60,642 nucleotides of DNA from a virus (Duplodnaviria > Heunggongvirae > Uroviricota > Caudoviricetes), in IMG/VR virus record IMGVR_UViG_2721755676_000007, one strand, 5' to 3'. How positions within the stretch are numbered: the first letter of the stretch is position 1; the number at the start of each line of letters is the position of its first letter. Below, in pieces: positions 16,178 through 34,267 of the stretch. The translations under genes were made by a program, and so were the position numbers. The notes beneath the pieces were generated by a model. That model worked only from the letters and a program-made list of their open reading frames with translations, was not told where the DNA came from and ran no database searches.

Positions 16178-17203
16178 TTACGCCAGTTGTACGGACACGA
16201 ACTCATCAGGATCAGCCAGCAGCATCAGCGGTGCTGACTGAATCATGGTGAACTCTCGCGCCGGATCGCCGGATGTCTTCCAGTTTTTCGGATAACGGGG
16301 AGACGCATTAATACCCTCACTCAATGCGTCCGCATCCTGAATGCAGCCATAGGTGCGCAGACCGCGTGCCTGAGTGTTCCCCAGTACCATCGTGTTGTCC
16401 GGCAGGAAGTTCTTTTTGACGCCGTTTTCCACGTACTGTCCGGAATACACGACGATGGCCACATCGCCATACATCCCCTTATAGGACACCGCTTTACCCA
16501 GGTCTTTCACCGCTGTCTCCAGCTCGGAATGAGAGCCGCGACGGGTATCCAGCTTCTCCCTGACGGCTTTGAAGGAACGGAACAGCGCCCAGCCTTTCGG
16601 ATCAAACACGATGATATTCACCACGCCGCTGGCGTTCAGCGCGTAGGCTTCGATATCGTCGGTCGGGTCATACGTGGACTTGTCACGCTTGCTCCACTCC
16701 GTGCCGCCGGACTGCGTGATGTTGTTCGCCGCACTGCGGCCCATATCCACCTCAACCGGATCGAAGGCTTCACCGGTCATGGTGTATTTGCCCTTGAGCA
16801 CGGCAGAAACTGCCTGCATCTCTTCGACCTGAGCAATGGCCAGCTCTTCGTCACGCATGTTCTGCATGATGATGCGACGGCGGCGGTAAGCCGGGTCCGC
16901 CAGATTCTGCGGATCTTCATCCGGCAGGCGACGCAGGGTCATCTGCGGATTCACCTCATGCTTGGGTTTGACATATCCCGGCGTAAATTCAGAGGTGGAG
17001 CCGCCACGGGAACGGATAACCTCACCGGAAACAATCGGCGAAACGTACAGCGCCATGTTTACCAGTCCCGGAATTTGTGAGAGATAGACTTTCTCCGTAG
17101 TGAAGGGATAGCTCTCACGGAAAAAGAGACGCAGAAACAGCGGATCAAACTTAAATTTCTGCTCATTTGCCGCCAGCAGCTGGGCGGTTGTGTACATCGA
17201 CAT
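16178..17203 (-). CDS. E: Major capsid protein E
   Basis: Start at MSMYTTAQLLAANEQKFKFDPLFLRLFF gives 1026 nt as in lambda E. Confidence 0.93.
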   Translation of the reverse strand: MSMYTTAQLLAANEQKFKFDPLFLRLFFRESYPFTTEKVYLSQIPGLVNMALYVSPIVSGEVIRSRGGSTSEFTPGYVKPKHEVNPQMTLRRLPDEDPQNLADPAYRRRRIIMQNMRDEELAIAQVEEMQAVSAVLKGKYTMTGEAFDPVEVDMGRSAANNITQSGGTEWSKRDKSTYDPTDDIEAYALNASGVVNIIVFDPKGWALFRSFKAVREKLDTRRGSHSELETAVKDLGKAVSYKGMYGDVAIVVYSGQYVENGVKKNFLPDNTMVLGNTQARGLRTYGCIQDADALSEGINASPRYPKNWKTSGDPAREFTMIQSAPLMLLADPDEFVSVQLA

Positions 17204-17258: not shown

Positions 17259-17591
17259 TTAAACGATGCTGATTGCCGTTCCGGCAAACGCGGTCCGTTT
17301 TTTCGTCTCGTCGCTGGCAGCCTCCGGCCAGAGCACATCCTCATAACGGAACGTGCCGGACTTGTAGAACGTCAGTGTGGTGCTGGTCTGGTCAGCAGCA
17401 ACCGCCAGAATGCCAACGGCAGCACCGTCGGTGGTGCCATCCCACGCAACCAGCTTACGGGTGGAGGTGTCCAGCATCAGCGGGGTCATTGCAGGCGCTT
17501 TCGCACTCAATCCGCCGGGCGCGGTTGCGGTATGAGCCGGGTCACTATTGCCCAGCGGCTGGTAATGGGTAAAGGTTTCTTTGCTCGTCAT
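17259..17591 (-). CDS. D: Head decoration protein D
   Basis: Start at [12 protein letters not shown] gives 333 nt as in lambda D. Confidence 0.92.
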
Positions 17592-18206: not shown

Positions 18207-18920
18207 CCGGGACTGCAGTGTCTCCCGGACGTCATCCGGAAGATGGCTGTAGGGGTTGCCATCCACCTTATGGCTGCCGCTGTAAATCAGCGTGATTTCC
18301 ACACCCTGTTTCTCCAGGGCAGCACCGTAATTACTGTGAGCCATCATGACGCCGATGGAGCCTGTCCGGGCGGTCTGCGTGACCAGACGCCGGGAGGCGG
18401 CACTGGCAAGCAACTGACCTGCACTGCAGTTCATGTCGTTGGCCAGCGCCCATACCGGTTTTATGTCACGCACACGGGCGATGATGTCAGCGCAGTCAAA
18501 TGCCCCCGCCACCATCCCGCCGGGCGTGTCCATATCGAGCAGAATGCCGTCCACCATCGGATCGCTGGCAGCCTGTTGCAGACGGGCGATAATGCCGTTG
18601 TAACCGGTCATCCCCGAGTACGGCTGCAGCGCCCGCGTCCGGCTGACCAGCGTGCCGGACACCGGCAGCACGGCGATGCCGTTCATGACCTGATAACTGC
18701 GGGCCTGTCGTGGTCCGTCATCATCACCGGATAATGCCAGCGTCGCGAGTGCCTCCTGGGCAGTCAGGCTGTCGCCGGACACCGCATCCGTCAGGCGGCT
18801 GATCCCAAGCTGGCCTGCAAGCGCACAAAAGAAAACCCGCGCATAGGCGGGTTCAAGCATCAGCGGCTCATTAAAGGCCATACTGGCAATATGCGGGAGA
18901 TTACGCAGCTCTGCTGTCAC
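17601..18920 (-). CDS. C: Prohead protease / scaffold protein C (S49/ClpP-like)
   Basis: 1320 nt as in lambda C when started at the GTG at 18918-18920 (TAELRNLPHIASMAFNEPLMLEP); an in-frame ATG exists further upstream at 19055. Confidence 0.85.
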   Translation of the reverse strand: MTAELRNLPHIASMAFNEPLMLEPAYARVFFCALAGQLGISRLTDAVSGDSLTAQEALATLALSGDDDGPRQARSYQVMNGIAVLPVSGTLVSRTRALQPYSGMTGYNGIIARLQQAASDPMVDGILLDMDTPGGMVAGAFDCADIIARVRDIKPVWALANDMNCSAGQLLASAASRRLVTQTARTGSIGVMMAHSNYGAALEKQGVEITLIYSGSHKVDGNPYSHLPDDVRETLQSRMDATRQMFAQKVSAYTGLSVQAVLDTEAAVYSGQEAIDAGLADELVNSTDAITVMRDALDARKSRLSGGRMTKETQSTTVSATASQADVTDVVPATEGENASAAQPDVNAQITAAVAAENSRIMGILNCEEAHGREEQARVLAETPGMTVETARRILAAAPQSAQARSDTALDRLMQGAPAPLAAGNPASDAVNDLLNTPV

Positions 18921-19680
18921 TCTTCTCCTCCTCTGTTGATTGTCGCAGTCCGGATTCAAATGCCGCAGCCGCCCAGGCGGGCGGTTTAAGACCGGCTGCG
19001 CGGCGCTCCATCGTTTCACGGACCTGCTGGGCAAAAATTTCCTGATAGTCGTCACCGCGTTTCGCGCACTCTTTCTCGTAGGTGCTCAGTCCGGCTTCTA
19101 TCAGCATCACCGCTTCCTGAACTTCTTTCAGACCATCGATGGCCATACGACCGGAGCCTATCCAGTCGCAGTTCCCCCAGGCACTGCGGGCTTCCTGAAA
19201 ACTGAAGCGCGCTTTTGAAGGTAACGTCACCACGCGGCGAACGATGGCCTCTTCCAGCCAGCACAGAAACATCTGGCTCGCCTGACGGGATGCGACGAAT
19301 TTTCGCCGCCCCATAAAGTACGCCCACGACTCGTTCGCACTGGCCCGTGCCGTGGAGTAGCTCATCTGGGCGTAATTCCGGGAAAGCTGCTCATACGAGA
19401 CACCCAGCCCGGCAGCAATATACCGCAACAGTGACTGCTCAAATACGGAGTAGCCGTTATCCGTGTCCTGAGCCGTCTGCAGGTTCAGTGAGTCCCCCGG
19501 CATCAGGTGCGGCACTTTTGCGCCTCCCAGCCGGACCGGTGCTGCGGCGTAATACGCGGCAATTTCACCAATCCAGCCAGTCAGCCTTTCCCGCTGCTCC
19601 TGACTGTTCGCGCCCAGAATAAAATCCATCGCTGACTGCGTATCCAGCTCACTCTCAATGGTGGCGGCATACATCGCCTT
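18901..19680 (-). pseudogene. B: Portal protein B, C-terminal fragment (separated from its N-terminal part by the 10.9 kb insertion)
   Basis: Reads ...KA-MYAATIESELDTQSAMDFILGAN... to a C-terminus ending EEEKSDSRAA as in lambda B; upstream sequence beyond 19680 is unrelated. Confidence 0.9.
19673..19680. repeat. Left copy of the 8-bp junction direct repeat ATCGCCTT (att core or target duplication)
   Basis: Identical octamer at 30572-30579; both copies read K-A-(M/I) in the B frame. Confidence 0.85.
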
Positions 19681-19754: not shown

Positions 19755-19777
19755 GCAATACACACTGCAATACACGA
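19755..19777. repeat. Two direct copies of GCAATACAC(A/G) near the left end of the insert (candidate integrase arm sites)
   Basis: tcGCAATACACAcTGCAATACACGa; three copies of TGCAATACACA occur at the other end (30381-30434). Confidence 0.5.
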
Positions 19778-20107
19778 TTATTTATAAGATGAGCGGCATC
19801 CGTCATAAAGCTGGTGGATGCTTTTTCTATGCATATATGCACAGTTTTAGTGGGCGTTAATGTCGATATAGGGATCCCCATATCGAGATTGGATACCTGG
19901 CTTTTTTCCGGTTAACCTTTAATCAGGCTGGTGGGCTTTACCTGTTTTGTATGAGTGGTCATCATGACCATGTCATAACAAAAACCCCATATTCGTGGTT
20001 TTTCTGTGTCGGGCTATTCTGTCGTTGCTGTGCTGATTTGGCTGGTGGGCTGAATCATCATTACGGCGATGCAGCTATGTAGACGTTCCGGCCTCCTCAA
20101 ATTGAGG

Positions 20108-20245
20108 ATTGTGGAAGAATCAATGGGTTAGTCTTACTTTCCCGACATCCCCCAATGGGGGTTTTCGAAACAATCAATAGCTTAGGCTTACTTCCCCGAT
20201 TTCCTGCATTGCAGGTTTTCGAAATAATCAATGGGTTAGGCCATC
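20108..20245. repeat. 54-bp tandem repeat, about 2.5 copies, each unit containing a short hairpin palindrome
   Basis: AATCAATGGGTTAG / AATCAATAGCTTAG / AATCAATGGGTTAG at 20118, 20172, 20226; palindromes CCCCCAATGGGGG (20149-20161) and CCTGCATTGCAGG (20203-20215). Confidence 0.7.
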
Positions 20246-20489
20246 GTGCAATTTTGCACTTTGCCAGCCAGCGCAATGTCGCGTTATCAGTCCTCAGATG
20301 TGAGGGATGTAGCCAGCTTTTCCCCCAGTGGGGGATATCCAGCACCGACGGCTTAACTGTGCGTGCCAGCACAAGGTAGCCTTGAACTACTTACTGCATC
20401 CCATCTTACAGGCCGTGCCTTCCTGCTTAACTTTTTGCAATGCAACAAGTCAGCCAGCGCAATTTTGCGTTATCGGGAATATCAGCAAG

Positions 20490-20771
20490 TTACCGCCGCA
20501 ATCGTTCCGGCTTCTTCCACTGGTAAGTATTTTTCGCGCTCTCCCTCCGTTGTTGAGAACGGCGACGATATGCCAGCAACTCAAGGACTCTTGTTCGTAT
20601 GTTGCGCATATCCACGCCGTTAAGCTCAATACCGTCACGGCGCATCACCTCAGCCACTACACGCACATAATTATCTGCGGTCACGCTGTCCGGCTGCGTG
20701 GCCTGTTCGTCATGCTGCTTGCTGATTCCACAAGCACGGCGGATTAATCGCAGTATTTCGGATTCAGTCAT
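20490..20771 (-). CDS. Hypothetical protein (93 aa), satellite-encoded
   Basis: ORF downstream of the Nu1-like gene in the same orientation; no recognisable motif. Confidence 0.45.
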   Translation of the reverse strand: MTESEILRLIRRACGISKQHDEQATQPDSVTADNYVRVVAEVMRRDGIELNGVDMRNIRTRVLELLAYRRRSQQRRESAKNTYQWKKPERLRR

Positions 20772-20782
20772 AGCGTACTACG

Positions 20783-21337
20783 TTACTTATCTTTATTCGG
20801 CTGCAACTTATCCGGTACGTTTCCGGCAGTTTCCATCAGATAATCGGACAGCATCAGCGGTATGTTTTCGTCAAGTTTTGCGCATGCGTTACAGGCTCTG
20901 ATAACTTCTTTTTTCAGTCCATCCAGCATAGACGGCTTCATGTCGGGAAACTTCCTTGTCATGGCAAGCGGCAGGCTGTCCATGATTGAAGAAATCTGAC
21001 TCGCCAATTTTGAAAGCACGTATATACAAAACGCTGTATCAATAACGTCGCCGCGTTCGCGCTCGTTTTTAAGCTCCTGCGCCTCTGCCTGTGCTGTCAG
21101 CAATCTGATCCTGACTCGTAGAAGTTCATCATCATCAATCTCGCCTTTGTCGTCTGTAATCTGGTTAATTGCATTGCTAACCCGATTGTCTATTACGCTG
21201 GCAACATCATAAAACGCCTCGCGGCCTTTACGTTCAACGGGAGTCACTCCCCACTTGTCGAACGCTGTCGCACTTACACGGCAGCTTTGCGCCATGTTTT
21301 TTTTGTTCATCAGGTGCGATTTCATCAATATCCCCAC
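20783..21337 (-). CDS. Terminase small subunit homologue (Nu1-like), satellite-encoded
   Basis: C-terminal half aligns with lambda Nu1 (DTAFCIYVLSKLASQISSIMDSLPL vs ETAFCTFVLSRIAGEIASILDGIPL); sits about 120 bp downstream of the satellite cos; start may be the internal MNKKNM at 21310. Confidence 0.8.
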   Translation of the reverse strand: MGILMKSHLMNKKNMAQSCRVSATAFDKWGVTPVERKGREAFYDVASVIDNRVSNAINQITDDKGEIDDDELLRVRIRLLTAQAEAQELKNERERGDVIDTAFCIYVLSKLASQISSIMDSLPLAMTRKFPDMKPSMLDGLKKEVIRACNACAKLDENIPLMLSDYLMETAGNVPDKLQPNKDK

Positions 21338-21436
21338 TTAAGTAATGTTTCAGGTTGGTGTATTGGCTTTATCTTTTCCTTTTTATTCATAGAGATAGAG
21401 CGAACAACAAAACCACCACCAGCACCCGAAAAAGGC

Positions 21437-21502
21437 TCATAAATAGCGAAAACCCGCGAGGTCGCCGCCCCGTAGCCTACCGGATCACCGGAAAGGACCC
21501 GC
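21437..21502. other. Satellite cos site (cosN 12-mer at 21459-21470)
   Basis: 66-bp block with 4 mismatches to the prophage cos block at 34202-34267; contains the reverse complement of GGGCGGCGACCT; flanking cosB-side sequence differs. Confidence 0.8.
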
Positions 21503-21526: not shown

Positions 21527-21910
21527 TCAACCAATCAGCTTATAGCGACCATCCCGTGCATTGCGGCGTACACGCTCAATCTTGAGGCATAGCGCCGCAT
21601 CTGGCTTTTTTGGGACAGGTACGCGGCAATATTCAGAAGCGCGAGGAATATTATTTATCCAGTCGATCACTTCACTTAAATACCAGGCCTTACGCCCTTC
21701 CGTAACCTGCACACGCTCCGGGAACTCTCCACTAGCCTCAAGGTTTAGCAGTGTACGACGACTCAGGGTTGTAATTTCCATCACCTGATTCATATCAACA
21801 AGGCGCTCGCTTAAACACATTTTGTCAGCGATAGCTTTTAATTCCTCTACAGCTGGATTCGGGTACATCATTTCGGCAATTGGCTTAAGGTCATTGTAAT
21901 CATTCTGCAT
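21527..21910 (-). CDS. AlpA-family HTH regulator (127 aa)
   Basis: C-terminal region ITTLSRRTLLNLEASGEFPERVQVTEGRKAWYLSEVIDWI resembles AlpA/excisionase-type HTH. Confidence 0.55.
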   Translation of the reverse strand: MQNDYNDLKPIAEMMYPNPAVEELKAIADKMCLSERLVDMNQVMEITTLSRRTLLNLEASGEFPERVQVTEGRKAWYLSEVIDWINNIPRASEYCRVPVPKKPDAALCLKIERVRRNARDGRYKLIG

Positions 21911-21921
21911 TGTATCCCCCT

Positions 21922-22263
21922 TTACACACGAGCCAGCGGCTGAACAGAAATACCTGAGCCAACAAACGCTGCAACCTTTACTGACAGTTCTTTAACAGAC
22001 TCAGGCCAGTTCAGAGCATCAACATTTAAGACACCTGTCTTATAGACCTGAGCCTGTGTTTTTTTCGCGGTGTCGATTTGTACAGCGGAAACATAAACCG
22101 CTTTACCTACGCTCGAACCATCCCATACCACCAGTGCACCTGTTGCATCTTCCTGCATCAGTGGCGTAAATGCAGGAATTACCCCTTTATTAGCTGAAAA
22201 TATCCCCAGCGTAGTCACCAGTGCTTCAGTGCCAGCCATGAGTTCAGTGTAATGAGTAGCCAT
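21922..22263 (-). CDS. Head decoration protein D paralogue, satellite-encoded
   Basis: 113 aa; aligns with lambda D over VWDGSSVGKAVYVSAV...YKTGVLNVDALNWPE vs [17 protein letters not shown]...[15 protein letters not shown]. Confidence 0.7.
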   Translation of the reverse strand: MATHYTELMAGTEALVTTLGIFSANKGVIPAFTPLMQEDATGALVVWDGSSVGKAVYVSAVQIDTAKKTQAQVYKTGVLNVDALNWPESVKELSVKVAAFVGSGISVQPLARV

Positions 22264-22272
22264 TGCTCCCCC

Positions 22273-23319
22273 TTAGCCAATGCGAACGGTAACAAAACGA
22301 TTGATGCGGGCCGGTATTGGCTGTGGTGCTGAATGTGTCTGCACATATTCAATAGCCGGATCACCAGGCACAATATAGTTTTTCGGTGCAAGTTCGGCTT
22401 TAGTCAGCCCCATTCGGATTAGCTCCGGATCCTGAATACCGCCATAGGCGACAATCCCCTGAAGAGCCGTATTGCCAAGCACCATCAAATCAGGATCAAG
22501 GAAATGTTTTTCTGTTCCGTCCTCGTCGGTATAACGCCCGCTGTAAACAACAATCGCAACATCGCCCATATACCCTTTAAAACTCACCGAATCACCAAGG
22601 TCTTTAAGGGCCGTTTCCAGTTCGGAATTAGAACCACGACGGGTATCCAAAGCCTCTTTTATCGCTCTGAATGAACGGTATTTCTTCCATACATTACCAC
22701 CCATAATGATGATATTAGTGACGCCCTCACTAAATTCTGCGTAGCTCTCAATATCATCATTTGGATCAAAAGTTTCTTTATCCTTACCTGACCACTCAGT
22801 ACCGCCAGACTGAGTGATGATATTTTGTGGTTTTATATTCCAGTCCAGCTCATAACGTTCAATACCATCGCCCTCAATGATATTTTTCCCCGTTGTGATT
22901 GCCTGAACAGCAAGCCATTCAATACGTGCACGAATAGCTTTAGCCTGATTTACAATCGCCTGTTTAACTTTAATATTACGCGCCCCAAAAGCATTGTATT
23001 GCTCAGGTGACACACCAGCAGGGCGCACAGCTAACTTATTTGGATCAATGCTGCTTTTCGGCTTCATATAACCTGGACGAATTGTTTTTGATTCGTATCC
23101 CTCATCTCGTGAAACTTTACTGCCCACCATAGGAGAGCAAAACGCCGCGATCGGGATATTTGGATCGTCGATCGTATCAAGAATAATGTCTCTCGATTCA
23201 AACATTACCGAGCGAGTGAAAAACAAACTGGTAAACAACGCATTTAATTTTTTTTGCACATCTTCAGCATTAGCCACCTGCACAAGCTGTGTAGGCGAAT
23301 ATAAATCAACCATACTCAT
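22273..23319 (-). CDS. Major capsid protein E paralogue, satellite-encoded
   Basis: 349 aa from MSMVDLYSPTQL; conserved blocks ITQSGGTEWSGKDKETFDPNDDIESYA and LDTRRGSNSELETALKDLGDSVSFKGYMGDVAIVVYSGRY match lambda E. Confidence 0.85.
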   Translation of the reverse strand: MSMVDLYSPTQLVQVANAEDVQKKLNALFTSLFFTRSVMFESRDIILDTIDDPNIPIAAFCSPMVGSKVSRDEGYESKTIRPGYMKPKSSIDPNKLAVRPAGVSPEQYNAFGARNIKVKQAIVNQAKAIRARIEWLAVQAITTGKNIIEGDGIERYELDWNIKPQNIITQSGGTEWSGKDKETFDPNDDIESYAEFSEGVTNIIIMGGNVWKKYRSFRAIKEALDTRRGSNSELETALKDLGDSVSFKGYMGDVAIVVYSGRYTDEDGTEKHFLDPDLMVLGNTALQGIVAYGGIQDPELIRMGLTKAELAPKNYIVPGDPAIEYVQTHSAPQPIPARINRFVTVRIG

Positions 23320-23530: not shown

Positions 23531-23953
23531 TTAAAACGGTATATTATCGCCGTACGGATCATCATTCCCCGACTGTTGTTTTGCCCTGTTCAGTGCGTCA
23601 GTGGCCTGCCCCTGCTGGCCTTTTTTGCCGCCCGGTCGCGCCGTTCGCGCACTGATTACGCTGTCTGCGATAAGCTGCCAGCCCCGCCGCGTTTCGCCGT
23701 TCTGGCCTGTCCACTGGCTTACCTGCATGTTACCCGCCACGCTCACCAGTTCGCCTTTGTGGTGTTTTGCCAGTGCGTCGGCCTGTCTGCCAAACGCCAG
23801 GACGGATAACCACATCGTCGCCGTTCCGTCATCTGCCTGGCTGCACGGCAGGGGAACCGCCATACTCGCCATCGCCATTTGTGTCCCTTTGCTGGTGGTC
23901 TTTAACTGCGGGTCAGCCACCAGCCGCCCGTAAGCCGCTATCTGTGCTGTCAT
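23531..23953 (-). CDS. ssb: Single-stranded DNA-binding protein (SSB-like)
   Basis: 140 aa with OB-fold-like N-terminus, Gly/Gln-rich linker and acidic C-terminal tail ending DNIPF (SSB tip DDDIPF). Confidence 0.7.
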   Translation of the reverse strand: MTAQIAAYGRLVADPQLKTTSKGTQMAMASMAVPLPCSQADDGTATMWLSVLAFGRQADALAKHHKGELVSVAGNMQVSQWTGQNGETRRGWQLIADSVISARTARPGGKKGQQGQATDALNRAKQQSGNDDPYGDNIPF

Positions 23954-24550: not shown

Positions 24551-26305
24551 TTATAAAAACGCGTCGCAATCGTCTGTTGTAATTGCGTTGGTCTGCGTTA
24601 CTCCCTTAACTTTTCGCGTAATATATTCATGCCCGTAAACTTTCGCCGCTGGCTTCATGGCCTTGCTGAACTCAGCCACGTTTAGCGGTTTGCTCCTGCC
24701 CGCGTATGCCATAAACGCCAGATAGACGCGGTAAAGGCTGTTCCTGGTCGTGTACTTCACTGAATCACCACCGCCACCCATCATCAGGCCGCGCGCTTCC
24801 TCCAGAAAATTCAGGAACTGGCAAAACTCAATAACCGGATCCGTCTGTTGCTTTATTGCCAGTGCTTCATCACCGTCACGCTGTTCCAGTAGTAAAGCCC
24901 GTGCCTTCTCAGGGTCGGTAAAGTTCGCCAGCAATCGGCGGATAATAACGGGGATTTCAGCCGCAATCTTTTCCGGTAGCTCCCTGTCTTTTTCGGCCTC
25001 ACTGACGATATTGTCGAAACGGAAAATCACGCGACGACGTGCCACACCTCCGGCCCGTTCGGTGAATATCATCGGGTTGTTGTTGGTCGCCAGCACCACC
25101 GCCCTGATTACCGCCGTGAAACGCTTTTCATATTTCGGGTTAATTTCCACGGGGTCGCCGCCTGTGATTTTCTTGATGCCCGTTCCTTCGCCTGTATATT
25201 TCGGCTGGTCAGCCAGGACGATAAGACGACTCCCGACAACCTGCGCACGTCCACCAGCATCATCAAGCGATGTCATTTCAGCGCTTACCGTGTTCTGTTT
25301 CCCTGCCAGAAGGCTGGCTATGTGTGTGAATGTACTTTTACCGCTCCCGCCGTCTCCGGTGGCCTCAATAAACATCTGCCAGTCGTACCGGTTCGCCATA
25401 ATCATGTACAGCGCGGCACATATACGCATCATCTTGCGCGGGTCTTTTCCGGCTGCGTGCTCAAGCCATTTATGAAAGTTTGGCGCGTTATCGCGGATGT
25501 TCTCCCCTGGTGCTGGTGGCGTGTACTCAATGCCGTTGTGCGTGGTGATCCAGTTCTCCGGCGTGTGCGGGGAAAATTCCCCCGTTTTCAGGTCAAGCGC
25601 ACCATTGGCGAACGGCAGCAAATCGCCAGACGGCTCGCCCATTGGTTCGGCAATAACTTTTAACGCTTCCACGGCGTTATTGATTACGCGCTTGCTGAAA
25701 GTGGCCCTGTGCTCTGAATAGATCGCCACCATTTCGCGGCTAAGTTCCATTGTGCTGACCGGACACCATACCCCGCCGCGCCATACGTGAACGATTTCAC
25801 TTTCAGGATGTACGCAAACGCCATCAAAGCGATCGGCAAGCAACTGCGCGCGCTCACTGTCCGCCATCTGCGAAAGTTGCGCCTTTTGCTTTACCGGAAG
25901 CTCAATGACCAGACCATCAGAAAGATTCTGGCGTTCACGGGCCAGATATTCGCGCCAGTTCTGCACCTCCTGGCCGTGCATACCCTCAGGATAAAAATTT
26001 GCATCCTGTACGCCTGCTGCCGCCAGCTTCTGACCAATCGCCTTTATCATTACAGGCGCAAGATATCCGGCCCTGTATATGCGTGCTGATTTTCGGCCTT
26101 CCGGCACAATTTGCAGATTATCCAGTTCGGATAGCTGCTGCTCCCCAAGCCACACAGGAGGCTCATTATCTCCGGCCATACGCGCATCATGTTCCTGCCA
26201 TTGTTTCGCGTGTGCCCAGGCATCACTACCCGCAAAAATAATTACTTCTGTTCCTTTGTGTTTTATGCCGCGTGACTGCTGTTTTACGTTCGGTGCCAGT
26301 TTCAT
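24551..26305 (-). CDS. P4 alpha-like primase/helicase (D5 family, Walker A GDGGSGKST)
   Basis: 584-aa ORF with P-loop NTPase core and phage/plasmid primase C-terminal-type architecture. Confidence 0.8.
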   Translation of the reverse strand: MKLAPNVKQQSRGIKHKGTEVIIFAGSDAWAHAKQWQEHDARMAGDNEPPVWLGEQQLSELDNLQIVPEGRKSARIYRAGYLAPVMIKAIGQKLAAAGVQDANFYPEGMHGQEVQNWREYLARERQNLSDGLVIELPVKQKAQLSQMADSERAQLLADRFDGVCVHPESEIVHVWRGGVWCPVSTMELSREMVAIYSEHRATFSKRVINNAVEALKVIAEPMGEPSGDLLPFANGALDLKTGEFSPHTPENWITTHNGIEYTPPAPGENIRDNAPNFHKWLEHAAGKDPRKMMRICAALYMIMANRYDWQMFIEATGDGGSGKSTFTHIASLLAGKQNTVSAEMTSLDDAGGRAQVVGSRLIVLADQPKYTGEGTGIKKITGGDPVEINPKYEKRFTAVIRAVVLATNNNPMIFTERAGGVARRRVIFRFDNIVSEAEKDRELPEKIAAEIPVIIRRLLANFTDPEKARALLLEQRDGDEALAIKQQTDPVIEFCQFLNFLEEARGLMMGGGGDSVKYTTRNSLYRVYLAFMAYAGRSKPLNVAEFSKAMKPAAKVYGHEYITRKVKGVTQTNAITTDDCDAFL

Positions 26306-28236: not shown

Positions 28237-28560
28237 TCACTGAATGCGGTTACCAAAGTAAAACTCAGGCTGATATTCACGTATCAGCGTTTTTTCTTCT
28301 TCCTCCAGCTCACGCTTTTTGCGCTTACATGCCTGTAGCTCCCTCCCCTTCTCGCTGGCACTTATTTGATATTGCTCTTTACGGCGGGAAAAATCCTGTA
28401 ATGCACCCCACGGGATACCATAAGTCCCCGTTTTTCTGATACCTGGTATCACATTTCTGAATACCCAGTTACTGAAACGATGAGCAAATGTGCCAGGCGT
28501 CGTTGCTTTGCGGCTGCGGGCTATTAGTTTGTAGAAACCTGACTCAGAGATAATTCTCAT
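28237..28560 (-). CDS. Bro-N domain protein, C-terminal part (split ORF)
   Basis: SESGFYKLIARSRKATTPGTFAHRFSNWVFRNVIPGIRKTGTYG is the second half of a Bro-N domain. Confidence 0.6.
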   Translation of the reverse strand: MRIISESGFYKLIARSRKATTPGTFAHRFSNWVFRNVIPGIRKTGTYGIPWGALQDFSRRKEQYQISASEKGRELQACKRKKRELEEEEKTLIREYQPEFYFGNRIQ

Positions 28561-28814
28561 ATTCTGATTTCCTCCTGGGTGTAAGTTAAATTTACTCCCT
28601 TTTCATCATCATCAAGCATCTGCAACGCCGTACGCGAATTGGTTAGTTCCAGCGCAGCACAAACATCTTTTGCAACAAACCACGGATCGCCGTTCAGATA
28701 CACCACACGAACGTTCACACTATCAAAGCGCAGAACGACGAGATCACGAATATCGCAGAATTTTTTCACTGGACGAGCGTACCCCTTGCCCGTCACGGCA
28801 ATATTTTTATTCAT
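28557..28814 (-). CDS. Bro-N domain protein, N-terminal part (split ORF)
   Basis: DPWFVAKDVCAALELTNSRTALQMLDDDEKG is the first half of a Bro-N domain; ends GGAGGAAATCAGAATATGA overlapping the next start. Confidence 0.6.
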   Translation of the reverse strand: MNKNIAVTGKGYARPVKKFCDIRDLVVLRFDSVNVRVVYLNGDPWFVAKDVCAALELTNSRTALQMLDDDEKGVNLTYTQEEIRI

Positions 28815-28870: not shown

Positions 28871-29128
28871 TTATTGCTGTTTTGTTTTTCCAGGTTTCCA
28901 TCCAGGATGCCACTCACCACGGATCCATGCCTGAACCTCTGAAAGTCGATACCCTGCAGCACGTTCACCGATCTTGATACGTCGCGGGAATTTACCTGCC
29001 TGCTCCATTTTCCAGCGTGTTGAGTTTGCCAGCGTGGTAAGTGCTATGCACTCTTTTTCACGAATGAACCGATCAATGTCCTTCATTGTGCGCAAATCGT
29101 TTTCATCAACAAGAGAATAAATTGCCAT
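28871..29128 (-). CDS. alpA: AlpA-family transcriptional regulator / excisionase-like
   Basis: 85 aa directly downstream of the integrase, typical P4/CP4-57-type int-alpA pair. Confidence 0.7.
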   Translation of the reverse strand: MAIYSLVDENDLRTMKDIDRFIREKECIALTTLANSTRWKMEQAGKFPRRIKIGERAAGYRLSEVQAWIRGEWHPGWKPGKTKQQ

Positions 29129-29129
29129 A

Positions 29130-30371
29130 TCACACCACCTCTTTATTAAGCTCGATAACGTTGTTGTTAAATCCTGCTATCGTATTAAGGTAATTAACCC
29201 ACATATTAAGCACCTCAAGTTTTTTCTTTATATGCCTGCTTTTATTGTAAACACCAGCAACCCCTTTCACTTTATGACCTAAAAGAAGTTCGACAATATA
29301 AGGATCCGCCCCCATATCATTAAGCGTAGTGGAAAATGTGCGCCTGAAATCATGTATGCACCACAAGCCATTAGTATCATGACCAAGACGCCTGCATATT
29401 CTGTTTGCAGCCCCTGTTATTGTCGCCCTTTGCAAAGCACAACCGACAACATAACCGCGATTTTTTGTTTCTGCGTAAAGATTAACGATCCATTGTTTTA
29501 TTCCGTCAGGAACAGGCCTTACTATAGCCTCCTTGTTTTTGCTGTGCTCTTTTGGGACTGTCCATACCCAGTTTTTTAAATCCCATTCGTCCCAGGTGGA
29601 TAGCCTCGCCTCCTGCTGTCGGCAACCAAACACCAGGCAGATAACCATTATTCTTCGGTTATATATTGATGACAGAGTTAGCAAATTATTACCGTAAGCA
29701 TAAGACCATACATCAGCGGTTTCATTGATATTAAGAACGCGATCCCTTATACCGGATGAGCGCCCGACATAACTTACGTTAATATCTCCAAAGGGATCGC
29801 ACGCGATGTATTGCCTGACGCGACAAAAACGCAACGCCTGTTTGATATCAAGAAAAATTGCACCAGACATAACAGGCGCATTTTTTTTGATCCTGTCAAA
29901 GACGGTAAGCCATGTGTGTAATTTGCACTGTTCTATAGCCATATCACCGATATAGGGGAAGATATGCTTTTCAAATCGTTTTATTAAATATTCATGCTCT
30001 TTTCTGGCTGTTGTGGCGTGATTGTCGTACCAGTAAAACAGCGCATCCCTTACGGTCACTGGTTGCATAGTTTTTTCGGCAGCAAGTTTTATTTGCCTGC
30101 GGGGGTCCAGATTTTCAGCCAGCCATTCACGGCACTGATCACGCATGCGCCTGGCCGTTGCAAGAGACATGTCAGGATAGCGACCAAGTGTAAGCCATAC
30201 CGGAGGGGATTCCCTGCCACCAAGACGATAGTAAAAAACAAAGCTGATCCCCCCAACCATGCTTACACGCACAGACAACCCGCGCCCATCCGCTATTGTT
30301 TTTTGTTTGTCCTGCCGTTTTCCGACAAGACTCTTTAACAGTTTGTCACTGAGTTTGTTTTCAATAGCCAT
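29130..30371 (-). CDS. int: Tyrosine integrase, P4-type
   Basis: 413 aa; N-terminal GRGLSVRV...GGISFVFYYRLGGR arm-binding-type domain; C-terminal HDFRRT...LLGH...Y catalytic signature. Confidence 0.88.
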   Translation of the reverse strand: MAIENKLSDKLLKSLVGKRQDKQKTIADGRGLSVRVSMVGGISFVFYYRLGGRESPPVWLTLGRYPDMSLATARRMRDQCREWLAENLDPRRQIKLAAEKTMQPVTVRDALFYWYDNHATTARKEHEYLIKRFEKHIFPYIGDMAIEQCKLHTWLTVFDRIKKNAPVMSGAIFLDIKQALRFCRVRQYIACDPFGDINVSYVGRSSGIRDRVLNINETADVWSYAYGNNLLTLSSIYNRRIMVICLVFGCRQQEARLSTWDEWDLKNWVWTVPKEHSKNKEAIVRPVPDGIKQWIVNLYAETKNRGYVVGCALQRATITGAANRICRRLGHDTNGLWCIHDFRRTFSTTLNDMGADPYIVELLLGHKVKGVAGVYNKSRHIKKKLEVLNMWVNYLNTIAGFNNNVIELNKEVV

Positions 30372-30380
30372 TAAAAGCCC

Positions 30381-30434
30381 TCAAGAGATTTGCAATACAC
30401 ACCCATCCCGATCGCCAATTTGCAATACACATTG
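30381..30434. repeat. Three direct copies of TGCAATACACA upstream of the satellite integrase (candidate arm-type sites)
   Basis: Copies at 30381, 30411 and 30424; same motif twice at the opposite end of the insert. Confidence 0.55.
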
Positions 30435-30571
30435 CAATACACAAAACCGCGAAAAACTGGAAGGGTGATGAACGGTCATCAAAAGCATGGAAAACGACAT
30501 TCCAGACGCAGCAAGGGTTTCAGTGGAGTTGGCGAACGATGCGGGCAACTACGGTGAGATGATAGACATAA

Positions 30572-33500
<2,929 letters not shown>

Positions 33501-33526
<26 letters not shown>

Positions 33527-34046
33527 TCAGCAACCCCGGTATCAGTTCATCCAGCGCGGCTGCTTTGTTCATGGCTTTGATGATATCCCGTTTCAGGAAA
33601 TCAACATGTCGGTTTTCCAGTTCCGGAAAACGCCGCTGCACCGACAGGGGGATCCCGTCGAGAATACTGGCAATTTCACCTGCGATCCGCGACAGCACGA
33701 AAGTACAGAATGCGGTTTCCACCACTTCAGCGGAGTCTCTGGCATTCTTCAGTTCCTGTGCGTCGGCCTGCGCACGCGTAAGTCGATGGCGTTCGTACTC
33801 AATAGTCCCTGGCTGGAGATCTGCCTCGCTGGCCTGCCGCAGTTCTTCAACCTCCCGGCGCAGCTTTTCGTTCTCAATTTCAGCATCCCTTTCGGCATAC
33901 CATTTTATAACGGCGGCAGAGTCATAAAGCACCTCATTACCCTTGCCACCGCCTCGCAGAACGGGCATTCCCTGTTCCTGCCAGTTCTGAATGGTACGGA
34001 TACTCGCACCGAAAATGTCAGCCAGCTGCTTTTTGTTGACTTCCAT
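33501..34046 (-). CDS. Nu1: Terminase small subunit Nu1
   Basis: 181-aa ORF MEVNKKQLADIFGASIRTIQNWQEQGMPVLRGG matching lambda Nu1. Confidence 0.93.
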
Positions 34047-34201: not shown

Positions 34202-34267
34202 TCATAAATAGCGAAAACCCGCGAGGTCGCCGCCCCGTAACCTGTCGGATCGCCGGAAAGGACCCGC
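34202..34267. other. Prophage cos site (cosN 12-mer at 34224-34235; lambda genome ends)
   Basis: Contains reverse complement of GGGCGGCGACCTCGCGGGTTTTCGCTATTTATGAAAATTTTCC and of the lambda right end ...CGACAGGTTACG. Confidence 0.9.

Follow-up and report, generated by a model that had tools for sequence, protein, structure and literature searches.

Why should a phage satellite carry its own genes for a capsid shell and its cement when its helper encodes both? We address this question for an element in a viral DNA record of the Caudoviricetes (IMG/VR record IMGVR_UViG_2721755676_000007), the whole 60,642 nucleotides of which we call the window. The window matches E. coli strain 210205630 at 100% identity. 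The element is a Gram-negative phage-inducible chromosomal island (PICI) of the EcCICFT073 type and is helper-embedded (HE-PICI), lying within the portal gene B of a lambdoid prophage. It measures 10,899 bp from att core to att core, and its gene list contains no lysis or tail genes. Two adjacent genes in it, here called satE and satD, resemble the major capsid gene E and the decoration gene D of the helper prophage. They pose a puzzle: such shell and cement genes are under purifying selection across genera, yet transfer and interference were unaffected in the only knock-outs made. We find that satE and satD are almost certainly the conserved capsid module of EcCICFT073-type PICIs, consisting of an HK97-fold shell protein and a gpD-type cement protein.

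satE and satD are homologues of phage capsid and decoration proteins

satE (22273–23319, − strand; 348 aa) is a homologue of the major capsid proteins of the lambda gpE/Phage_cap_E family, as supported by homology, Pfam, PDB and an AlphaFold2 (AF2) model. satD (21922–22263, − strand; 113 aa) is a homologue of the head decoration (cement) proteins of the lambda gpD/phage 21 SHP family. An earlier note on this DNA had described the two open reading frames (ORFs) as clear but diverged paralogues of the prophage genes E (16178–17203, − strand) and D (17259–17591, − strand), which the ORF list, homology and RefSeq identify as encoding the helper's major capsid and decoration proteins. Our protein alignments bear this out. 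satE was 41% identical to helper E over its full length (59% positives, E = 7e-85), and satD was 38% identical to helper D (E = 1e-17). Both matched the corresponding Pfam families: Phage_cap_E for satE (PF03864, 2.9e-41), with residues 14–345 covering profile positions 4–327 of 329, and HDPD for satD (PF02924, 4.5e-15). PHROGs classed satE as ‘major head protein’ (phrog_29, 2e-89) and satD as ‘head decoration’.

The PDB entry closest to satE was 3BQW, the crystal structure of CFT073 c1499 (1e-121). The AF2 model of satE had a pLDDT of 80.5 and a pTM of 0.81, and Foldseek aligned it with a TM of 0.87 to 3BQW and 0.84 to lambda gpE (7SJ5/7VI9). In the model, satE takes the complete HK97 fold of a shell protein, including the N-arm, E-loop, spine helix, A domain and P domain. 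For satD, the PDB matches were 1TD0/1TD3 (5e-16) and lambda gpD (1e-11).

The corresponding RefSeq products are WP_000228106.1 (346 aa) for satE and WP_000190773.1 for satD. We observed that an AGAGG Shine-Dalgarno sequence directly abuts the ATG at 23319 and lies 6 nt upstream of the ATG at 23313. Because of this spacing, 23313 is the likelier start of satE (22273–23313, the 346-aa RefSeq form). The satD start lies 9 nt past the satE stop, and a separate Shine-Dalgarno sequence precedes it. A promoter consensus scan for the pair returned 4 promoter-like sites, compared with 7.6 expected by chance.

In the satellite, E precedes D, whereas the helper has D before E. This inversion relative to lambda, pointed out in the earlier note, was confirmed and is kept in every satellite examined. 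The note had also held that the satellite lacks portal, scaffold/protease and connector genes and would depend on the helper for them. The ORF list, Pfam/PHROG scans and RefSeq annotation likewise revealed none of these genes in the element, so that assembly, if it occurs, would depend on B, C/Nu3, W and FII of the helper.

The pair forms a satellite-only lineage under purifying selection

The pair was present in 395 of 5,426 complete E. coli genomes (about 7%), counting genomes in which at least 80% of the query was covered. We also found the module in a chromosomal PICI adjoining tRNA-Pro, in an HE-PICI within capsid gene E, and in PICIs integrated at fis in the chromosomes of Serratia and Lelliottia. 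In Edwardsiella, an HE-PICI lying within a portal gene has E and D as its sole late genes. A Salmonella enterica satellite embedded among contractile-tail genes (L010, 3292–12978) carries E and D followed by an AlpA-like gene, and a Cedecea HE-PICI in E also carries the module.

Identities of satE homologues were bimodal. Satellite-type sequences had identities of 51% or more to satE and of no more than 48% to helper E, and phage-type sequences reached 43% identity to satE at most. A search of 50,697 phage records identified no phage donor of a satellite-type E; the best of its 437 matches was lambda, at 42%. Judged by these sequence comparisons, satE and satD belong to a lineage that is confined to satellites and separate from all sequenced phage E and D.

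Between diverged satellite copies, dN/dS was 0.065–0.09 (E) and 0.095 (D). One copy is decaying, with internal stops in terS and the SSB gene, but its E and D were intact. The low dN/dS values and the intact pair in the decaying copy indicate that satE and satD are functional and under strong purifying selection. A pseudogene reading, one of the outcomes that the earlier note had named as fatal to its proposal, was ruled out by the dN/dS values and by the open frames of satE and satD, neither of which has an internal stop.

Several related loci showed variations of the module. In the fis-site PICI of Lelliottia sp. SL45 (L008, 9001–11752), E and D are followed by an S49 protease (C-like, 447 aa). 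This E–D–protease order is the full reverse of lambda C–D–E, and the module is fuller than that in the window, pointing to a genuine head-building module. In Cedecea (L011, 11106–12254), a TIR-domain protein lies just downstream of the module and is apparently satellite cargo. The helper of this satellite has a lambda-like head module together with P2-like baseplate genes. A metagenome scaffold from ENA (P0043; L009, 2801–3829) encodes a hybrid capsid protein, with residues 1–225 phage-E-like and residues 226–348 100% identical to satE. Helper-type B, C and D lie upstream of this gene and a satD-type gene follows it. The hybrid either arose by real recombination between helper and satellite at the conserved block or is a chimera of sequence assembly. 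Two further single ORFs, P0005 (463 aa) and P0089 (470 aa), contain both Phage_cap_E and HDPD as E-then-D fusions, one in the satellite clade (85% identity) and the other at 42% identity. These fusions may be frameshift or read-through artefacts on short contigs.

satE and satD differ from phage E and D at probable contact surfaces

We compared 46 satellite-clade and 60 phage-clade capsid sequences. The near-identical blocks that the earlier note had seen between the paralogues were present: residues 226–265 of satE were 77% identical to helper E and residues 161–200 were 60% identical. The N-arm, E-loop, spine helix and C-terminal P-domain were 23–33% identical. The near-identical blocks correspond to the A-domain core, the most conserved Phage_cap_E segment (0.77–0.79 between phages). 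Because the same segment is the most conserved across the family, the blocks reflect shared constraint and not recent exchange. We had considered recent recombination for these blocks, as residues ~165–265 were more lambda-like in satE than in c1499; this was rejected when the c1499 subclade proved to be the outlier.

The E-loop, P-domain strands and C-terminal P-domain were conserved at 0.63–0.66 within satellites, as within phages, and at 0.27–0.40 between the clades. Eighteen of the 24 clade-discriminating positions in satE fell in these three regions or in the spine helix. In satellites the N-arm and spine helix have changed faster, with values of 0.42 and 0.51 against 0.61 and 0.67 in phages. 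Where lambda gpE has W308 (satE residue 315, codon ~22375–22377), the satE subclade of the window has Y. This position was W in all 60 phage-clade sequences, and in the satellite clade we counted 23 Y and 24 W. The protein crystallised in 7SJ5 is the lambda gpE W308A mutant.

satD has an N-terminus 3–7 residues shorter than that of phage D, a conserved satellite-specific PY.EL.AGT motif and a C-terminal SVQPLAR extension. Compared to lambda gpE/gpD and phage 21 SHP, the pair has the same folds and families, but differs in identity (41–42% for E, 38% for D), in its inverted order, in the altered satD termini and in E-loop and P-domain residues. Across 28 satellite pairs, the pairwise identities of E and D were correlated (r = 0.84).

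In lambda, the N-terminal strand of gpD docks at the threefold sites on two gpE subunits, at the E-loop of one and the N-arm of its neighbour (PMC5701804). Proteins of the gpD type bind the threefold sites of the mature, expanded capsid lattice (PMC5701804). From the sequence differences, we infer that satE and satD are probably a cognate shell and cement pair with a docking geometry of their own. Because a conserved cognate D is useful only on an expanded lattice, satE would be expected to reach a real expanded shell.

The pair is a documented feature of Gram-negative PICIs

The gene pair is an already documented feature of Gram-negative PICIs and not a new finding, and the HE-PICI configuration was also published in 2023. 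The earlier note's presentation of the feature as a discovery is not sustained: a major capsid gene occurs in 21 of the 29 reference Gram-negative PICIs (PMC10111431), the structure of c1499 is available as 3BQW, and SatelliteFinder counts ‘capsid morphogenesis’ among the core components of PICIs. In EcCICFT073 itself, c1499 has been described as a putative capsid protein and c1500 as a head decoration protein (PMC6092414).

EcCICFT073 is similar to the window element in several respects. c1499 and c1500 are 55% and 54% identical to satE and satD, and they have the order E then D and follow directly after the replication module. The two elements share an int-alpA-primase backbone, a cos-type packaging region and, as the last satellite gene, a conserved 93-aa protein (20490–20771, − strand; phrog_1561) that is 76% identical to its EcCICFT073 counterpart. 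They differ in that EcCICFT073 occupies a chromosomal site, whereas the window element lies in a prophage portal gene. EcCICFT073 also encodes RppA and unrelated small proteins where the window element has a Nu1-like small terminase (TerS).

Mutants of EcCICFT073 lacking c1499 or c1500 still interfere with lambda, and its authors found no phenotype for c1499 (PMC6092414). When the EcCICFT073 genes past the replication origin were expressed singly from pBAD18, only c1503 (RppA) inhibited lambda and phage 80, and deletion of c1503 restored lambda titres almost fully (PMC6739421). Full-text searches found no later literature giving the pair a function. Because the window element has TerS in place of RppA and its satE is 55% identical to c1499, the EcCICFT073 negatives may not transfer to it in either direction. 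A further difference from EcCICFT073, the Y in place of W at the lambda W308 position in the satE subclade of the window, is another reason why they may not fully transfer.

A proposed role on helper-built heads

Our best overall explanation is that satE and satD are a conserved PICI capsid module that works on heads initiated by the helper. We give this explanation a probability of about 0.5, a single compromise figure weighted to the mechanism. The assembly mechanism itself, in which satE and satD would assemble on helper portal and scaffold, is tentative, and we place it at even odds or slightly below.

Upon induction, the pair would be transcribed with the satellite's unidirectional gene set. 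In the unexcised composite, read-through from the helper late operon would also transcribe it. satE would then assemble on the helper portal, protease and scaffold (B, C/Nu3), into head shells or as part of them. After expansion, satD would cement the satE-type threefold sites, which helper D would fit poorly. The satellite's Nu1-like TerS would recruit helper gpA at the satellite cos, so that heads are filled with satellite DNA, and helper W/FII and tails would complete these heads. The likely effect would be a changed head composition or an extra supply of heads; the role would be accessory and would not necessarily alter head size. If the proteins enter heads, satellites would alter virion composition in a way that lies part-way between capsid hijacking and capsid formation, and this would be relevant for PICI-based delivery vehicles.

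Several observations weigh against this explanation. Deletion of c1499 or c1500 gave 3.8e3 or 8.7e3 transductants/ml, respectively, compared to 8e3 (PMC6092414). The island in routine use, in which cat replaces c1499, transfers at up to 1e6 with phage 80 (PMC6092414). Because these deletion mutants transfer normally, incorporation into heads is not required for transfer in the laboratory. The co-divergence of E and D could stem from plain genetic linkage and not from physical co-adaptation. The window copy of the satellite may also be regulatorily impaired, as its BRO-N gene (28237–28814, − strand) is frameshifted and split into 85-aa and 107-aa ORFs. A 99.9% identical copy, that of strain 20Y000092, has BRO-N as an unbroken frame of 579 nt.

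An unlikely but credible extension is that, with its native helper, the element acts as a ‘half-way’ capsid-forming PICI (cf-PICI), in which satE and satD would build the whole shell on the helper portal, protease and scaffold. Such a shell might have a lower T-number, with room for one or two genomes of 10.9 kb. Known cf-PICIs (EcCIEDL933; Alqurainy et al. 2023) share with the window element the PICI backbone and a shell protein of their own. Their gene set further includes portal, protease, head-tail connectors, HNH and the two terminase subunits, and the small heads that they build are complete. We rejected membership of the window element in this class, as it has only E, D and TerS, and portal, protease, connectors, the large terminase subunit and HNH are absent. 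If true, the half-way arrangement would divide the work between satellite and helper in a way not described before, and the laboratory helpers lambda and phage 80 would have masked it. It would also explain strong purifying selection in hundreds of genomes without a laboratory phenotype.

Alternative explanations

The earlier note had suggested that alternative shell subunits redirect capsid size or composition, the usual hypothesis for genes of this kind, drawn from the example of SaPIbov5 Ccm. In the size version satE, alone or as pentons mixed with helper E in the manner of Ccm, would force heads small enough to take one or two 10.9-kb satellite genomes and to exclude the helper genome. The precedent is SaPIbov5 Ccm (PMC5052747, PMC8569155), which also belongs to a cos-type satellite and is also a homologue of the helper's HK97-fold capsid protein. 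Ccm sits in pentons and gives T=4 heads (PMC8569155). PmCI172 likewise carries a capsid homologue and makes small heads (PMC6092414). Ccm differs from satE in its sequence family and in having no decoration protein beside it, and it has been shown to redirect the size and shape of heads and to block the helper. The fixed clade-specific changes in satE are consistent with redirection in that the E-loop and P-domain set inter-capsomer contacts, and the faster evolution of the N-arm and spine helix in satellites points the same way. Under T^1.5 scaling from the 48.5 kb of lambda, a T=3 head would have room for ~13.6 kb and a T=4 head for ~21 kb, near one or two times 10.9 kb. Against size redirection, four 10.9-kb copies amount to 43.6 kb, which fits a normal lambda head, with packaging limits of ~78–105% of 48.5 kb. 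The claim is also unsupported in the closest characterised relative. DNA packaged from EcCICFT073 with lambda as helper was all phage-sized, and the authors excluded size redirection (PMC6092414; restated in PMC6739421). The continued interference of the Δc1499 and Δc1500 mutants with lambda (PMC6092414) also argues against it. We regard size redirection as distinctly unlikely.

It is very unlikely that satE acts as a poison of helper head assembly. PICI genes past the replication origin usually include interference functions (PMC6739421), Ccm blocks phage reproduction (PMC6092414), and the A-domain core, the part of satE closest to phage E (0.48–0.63), could permit mixed capsomers. However, inhibition of lambda and phage 80 was confined to RppA among the expressed genes of this region, its deletion brought lambda titres back almost fully (PMC6739421), and deletion of c1499 or c1500 gave no relief of interference (PMC6092414). 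A poison would also have no obvious need for a conserved, co-diverging cement protein that serves expanded shells only.

Passive capture, in which helper late genes are kept as back-up for interrupted helper genes or as hitch-hikers with no dedicated satellite function, is highly improbable. Mageeney et al. propose that PICIs take up helper late genes, and a captured copy could replace an interrupted one (PMC10111431). The commonest HE-PICI site is inside E (PMC10111431), and one such copy has the same module; the hybrid helper-E/satE gene on the metagenome scaffold suggests recombination between the two. Yet the gene interrupted here is portal B, and the satellite carries E and D and no B; chromosomal PICIs at phoQ, tRNA-Pro and fis interrupt no phage gene and carry the same pair; the clade is old, satellite-specific and at most 43% identical to any phage E; and strong purifying selection is unexpected for passengers. 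No sequenced phage had a satellite-clade E or D at >70% identity in our searches, and dN/dS within the clade was not near 1.

The element splits the helper portal gene

The element is bounded by an 8-bp identity core, ATCGCCTT, that splits portal gene B. The attL core (19673–19680) forms the junction with the 3' fragment of B (18901–19680, − strand), which encodes residues 277–533 of the restored protein. The attR core (30572–30579) forms the junction with the 5' fragment (30572–31401, − strand), which encodes residues 1–276. In-silico excision restored a 533-aa Phage_portal_2 protein (1.6e-96). The insertion follows portal residue 276 and maps near position 241 of the Phage_portal_2 profile, a position named as an HE-PICI site by Mageeney et al. 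2023 (PMC10111431). Because the satellite lies within B, production of the helper portal is impossible until the satellite excises. The element is co-oriented with B, and nearly all its genes are on the − strand, like the helper late genes. We found the portal-embedded configuration in other strains and in Edwardsiella as well.

A motif scan for GCAATACA, the reverse complement of TGTATTGC, gave 5 matches compared to 0.5 expected. Doubled, arm-type copies of GCAATACA lie at 19755–19774 and 30422–30441 (both + strand). A feature reported as unique to HE-PICIs is that TGTATTGC occurs doubled at two sites, one 81 bp and the other 132 bp from the attP centre (PMC10111431). The summed distance of our two doubled motifs to the att core is ~213 bp, equal to 81 + 132 bp; the single distances are ~4 bp off the published values, depending on where the centre is placed. 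With published HE-PICIs (PMC10111431) the element shares the doubled TGTATTGC flanking the att core, an arrangement in four zones and, within the Late zone, a capsid gene of its own. It differs from the type element, Eco567.11capE, which lies in capsid gene E and not in portal gene B. The integrases of HE-PICIs in E and in B were similar in length and domain content.

Packaging functions and other genes of the element

We observed two exact copies of lambda cosN (GGGCGGCGACCT) in the window. One, at 21459–21470, lies in the satellite cos site (21430–21500, − strand). The other is the helper cosN (34224–34235, − strand), upstream of helper Nu1 (33501–34046) and A (31601–33526). About 65 bp around cosN are ~95% identical between satellite and helper, and the downstream cosB region is diverged. 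The satellite TerS gene (20783–21337, − strand) encodes a Nu1-like protein matching Phage_Nu1 over residues 70–152 (3.5e-24) and phrog_57 (3e-51). It is 37% identical to helper Nu1, with a similar C-terminal half and a diverged N-terminal DNA-binding part.

Directly downstream of satD is a gene for a second AlpA-family helix-turn-helix protein (21527–21910, − strand; Phage_AlpA 7.6e-9, phrog_2790 1e-49, PDB 8C3T). An AlpA-like gene has the same position in the Serratia, Salmonella and Cedecea satellites, and the late module of E, D and AlpA-like gene is conserved. We considered an RppA homologue in the element and rejected it, as the AlpA-like and Nu1-like proteins of the window had no similarity to the two EcCICFT073 proteins downstream of c1500. 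PDB searches for an RppA-like protein returned only the AlpA structure and noise.

At the other end of the element, the tyrosine integrase gene (29130–30371, − strand; Pfam Arm-DNA-bind_3 and Phage_integrase) is followed by alpA (28871–29128, − strand; phrog_2790). The replication genes encode a primase/helicase (24551–26305, − strand; Pfam D5_N, DUF5906 and Pox_D5) and an SSB (23531–23953; Pfam). Small ORFs and a DUF4222 gene are also present. No Rfam family was found in the element at gathering score; this includes the P4 CI/C4 and isrK immunity RNAs, which have been noted in some HE-PICIs.

The non-coding left end of the satellite contains three tandem 54-nt units (20088–20249). We observed this hairpin pattern only in copies of the same island among the loci fetched. 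Each unit forms a short hairpin, and the stem sequences differ yet stay paired (CCTCAAATTGAGG, CCCCCAATGGGGG and CCTGCATTGCAGG). On the + strand, every hairpin is followed by TTTTCGAAA..AATCAAT, and the + strand fold has a z of −2.9. The units may act as a row of terminators that stop antisense transcription coming in from attL.

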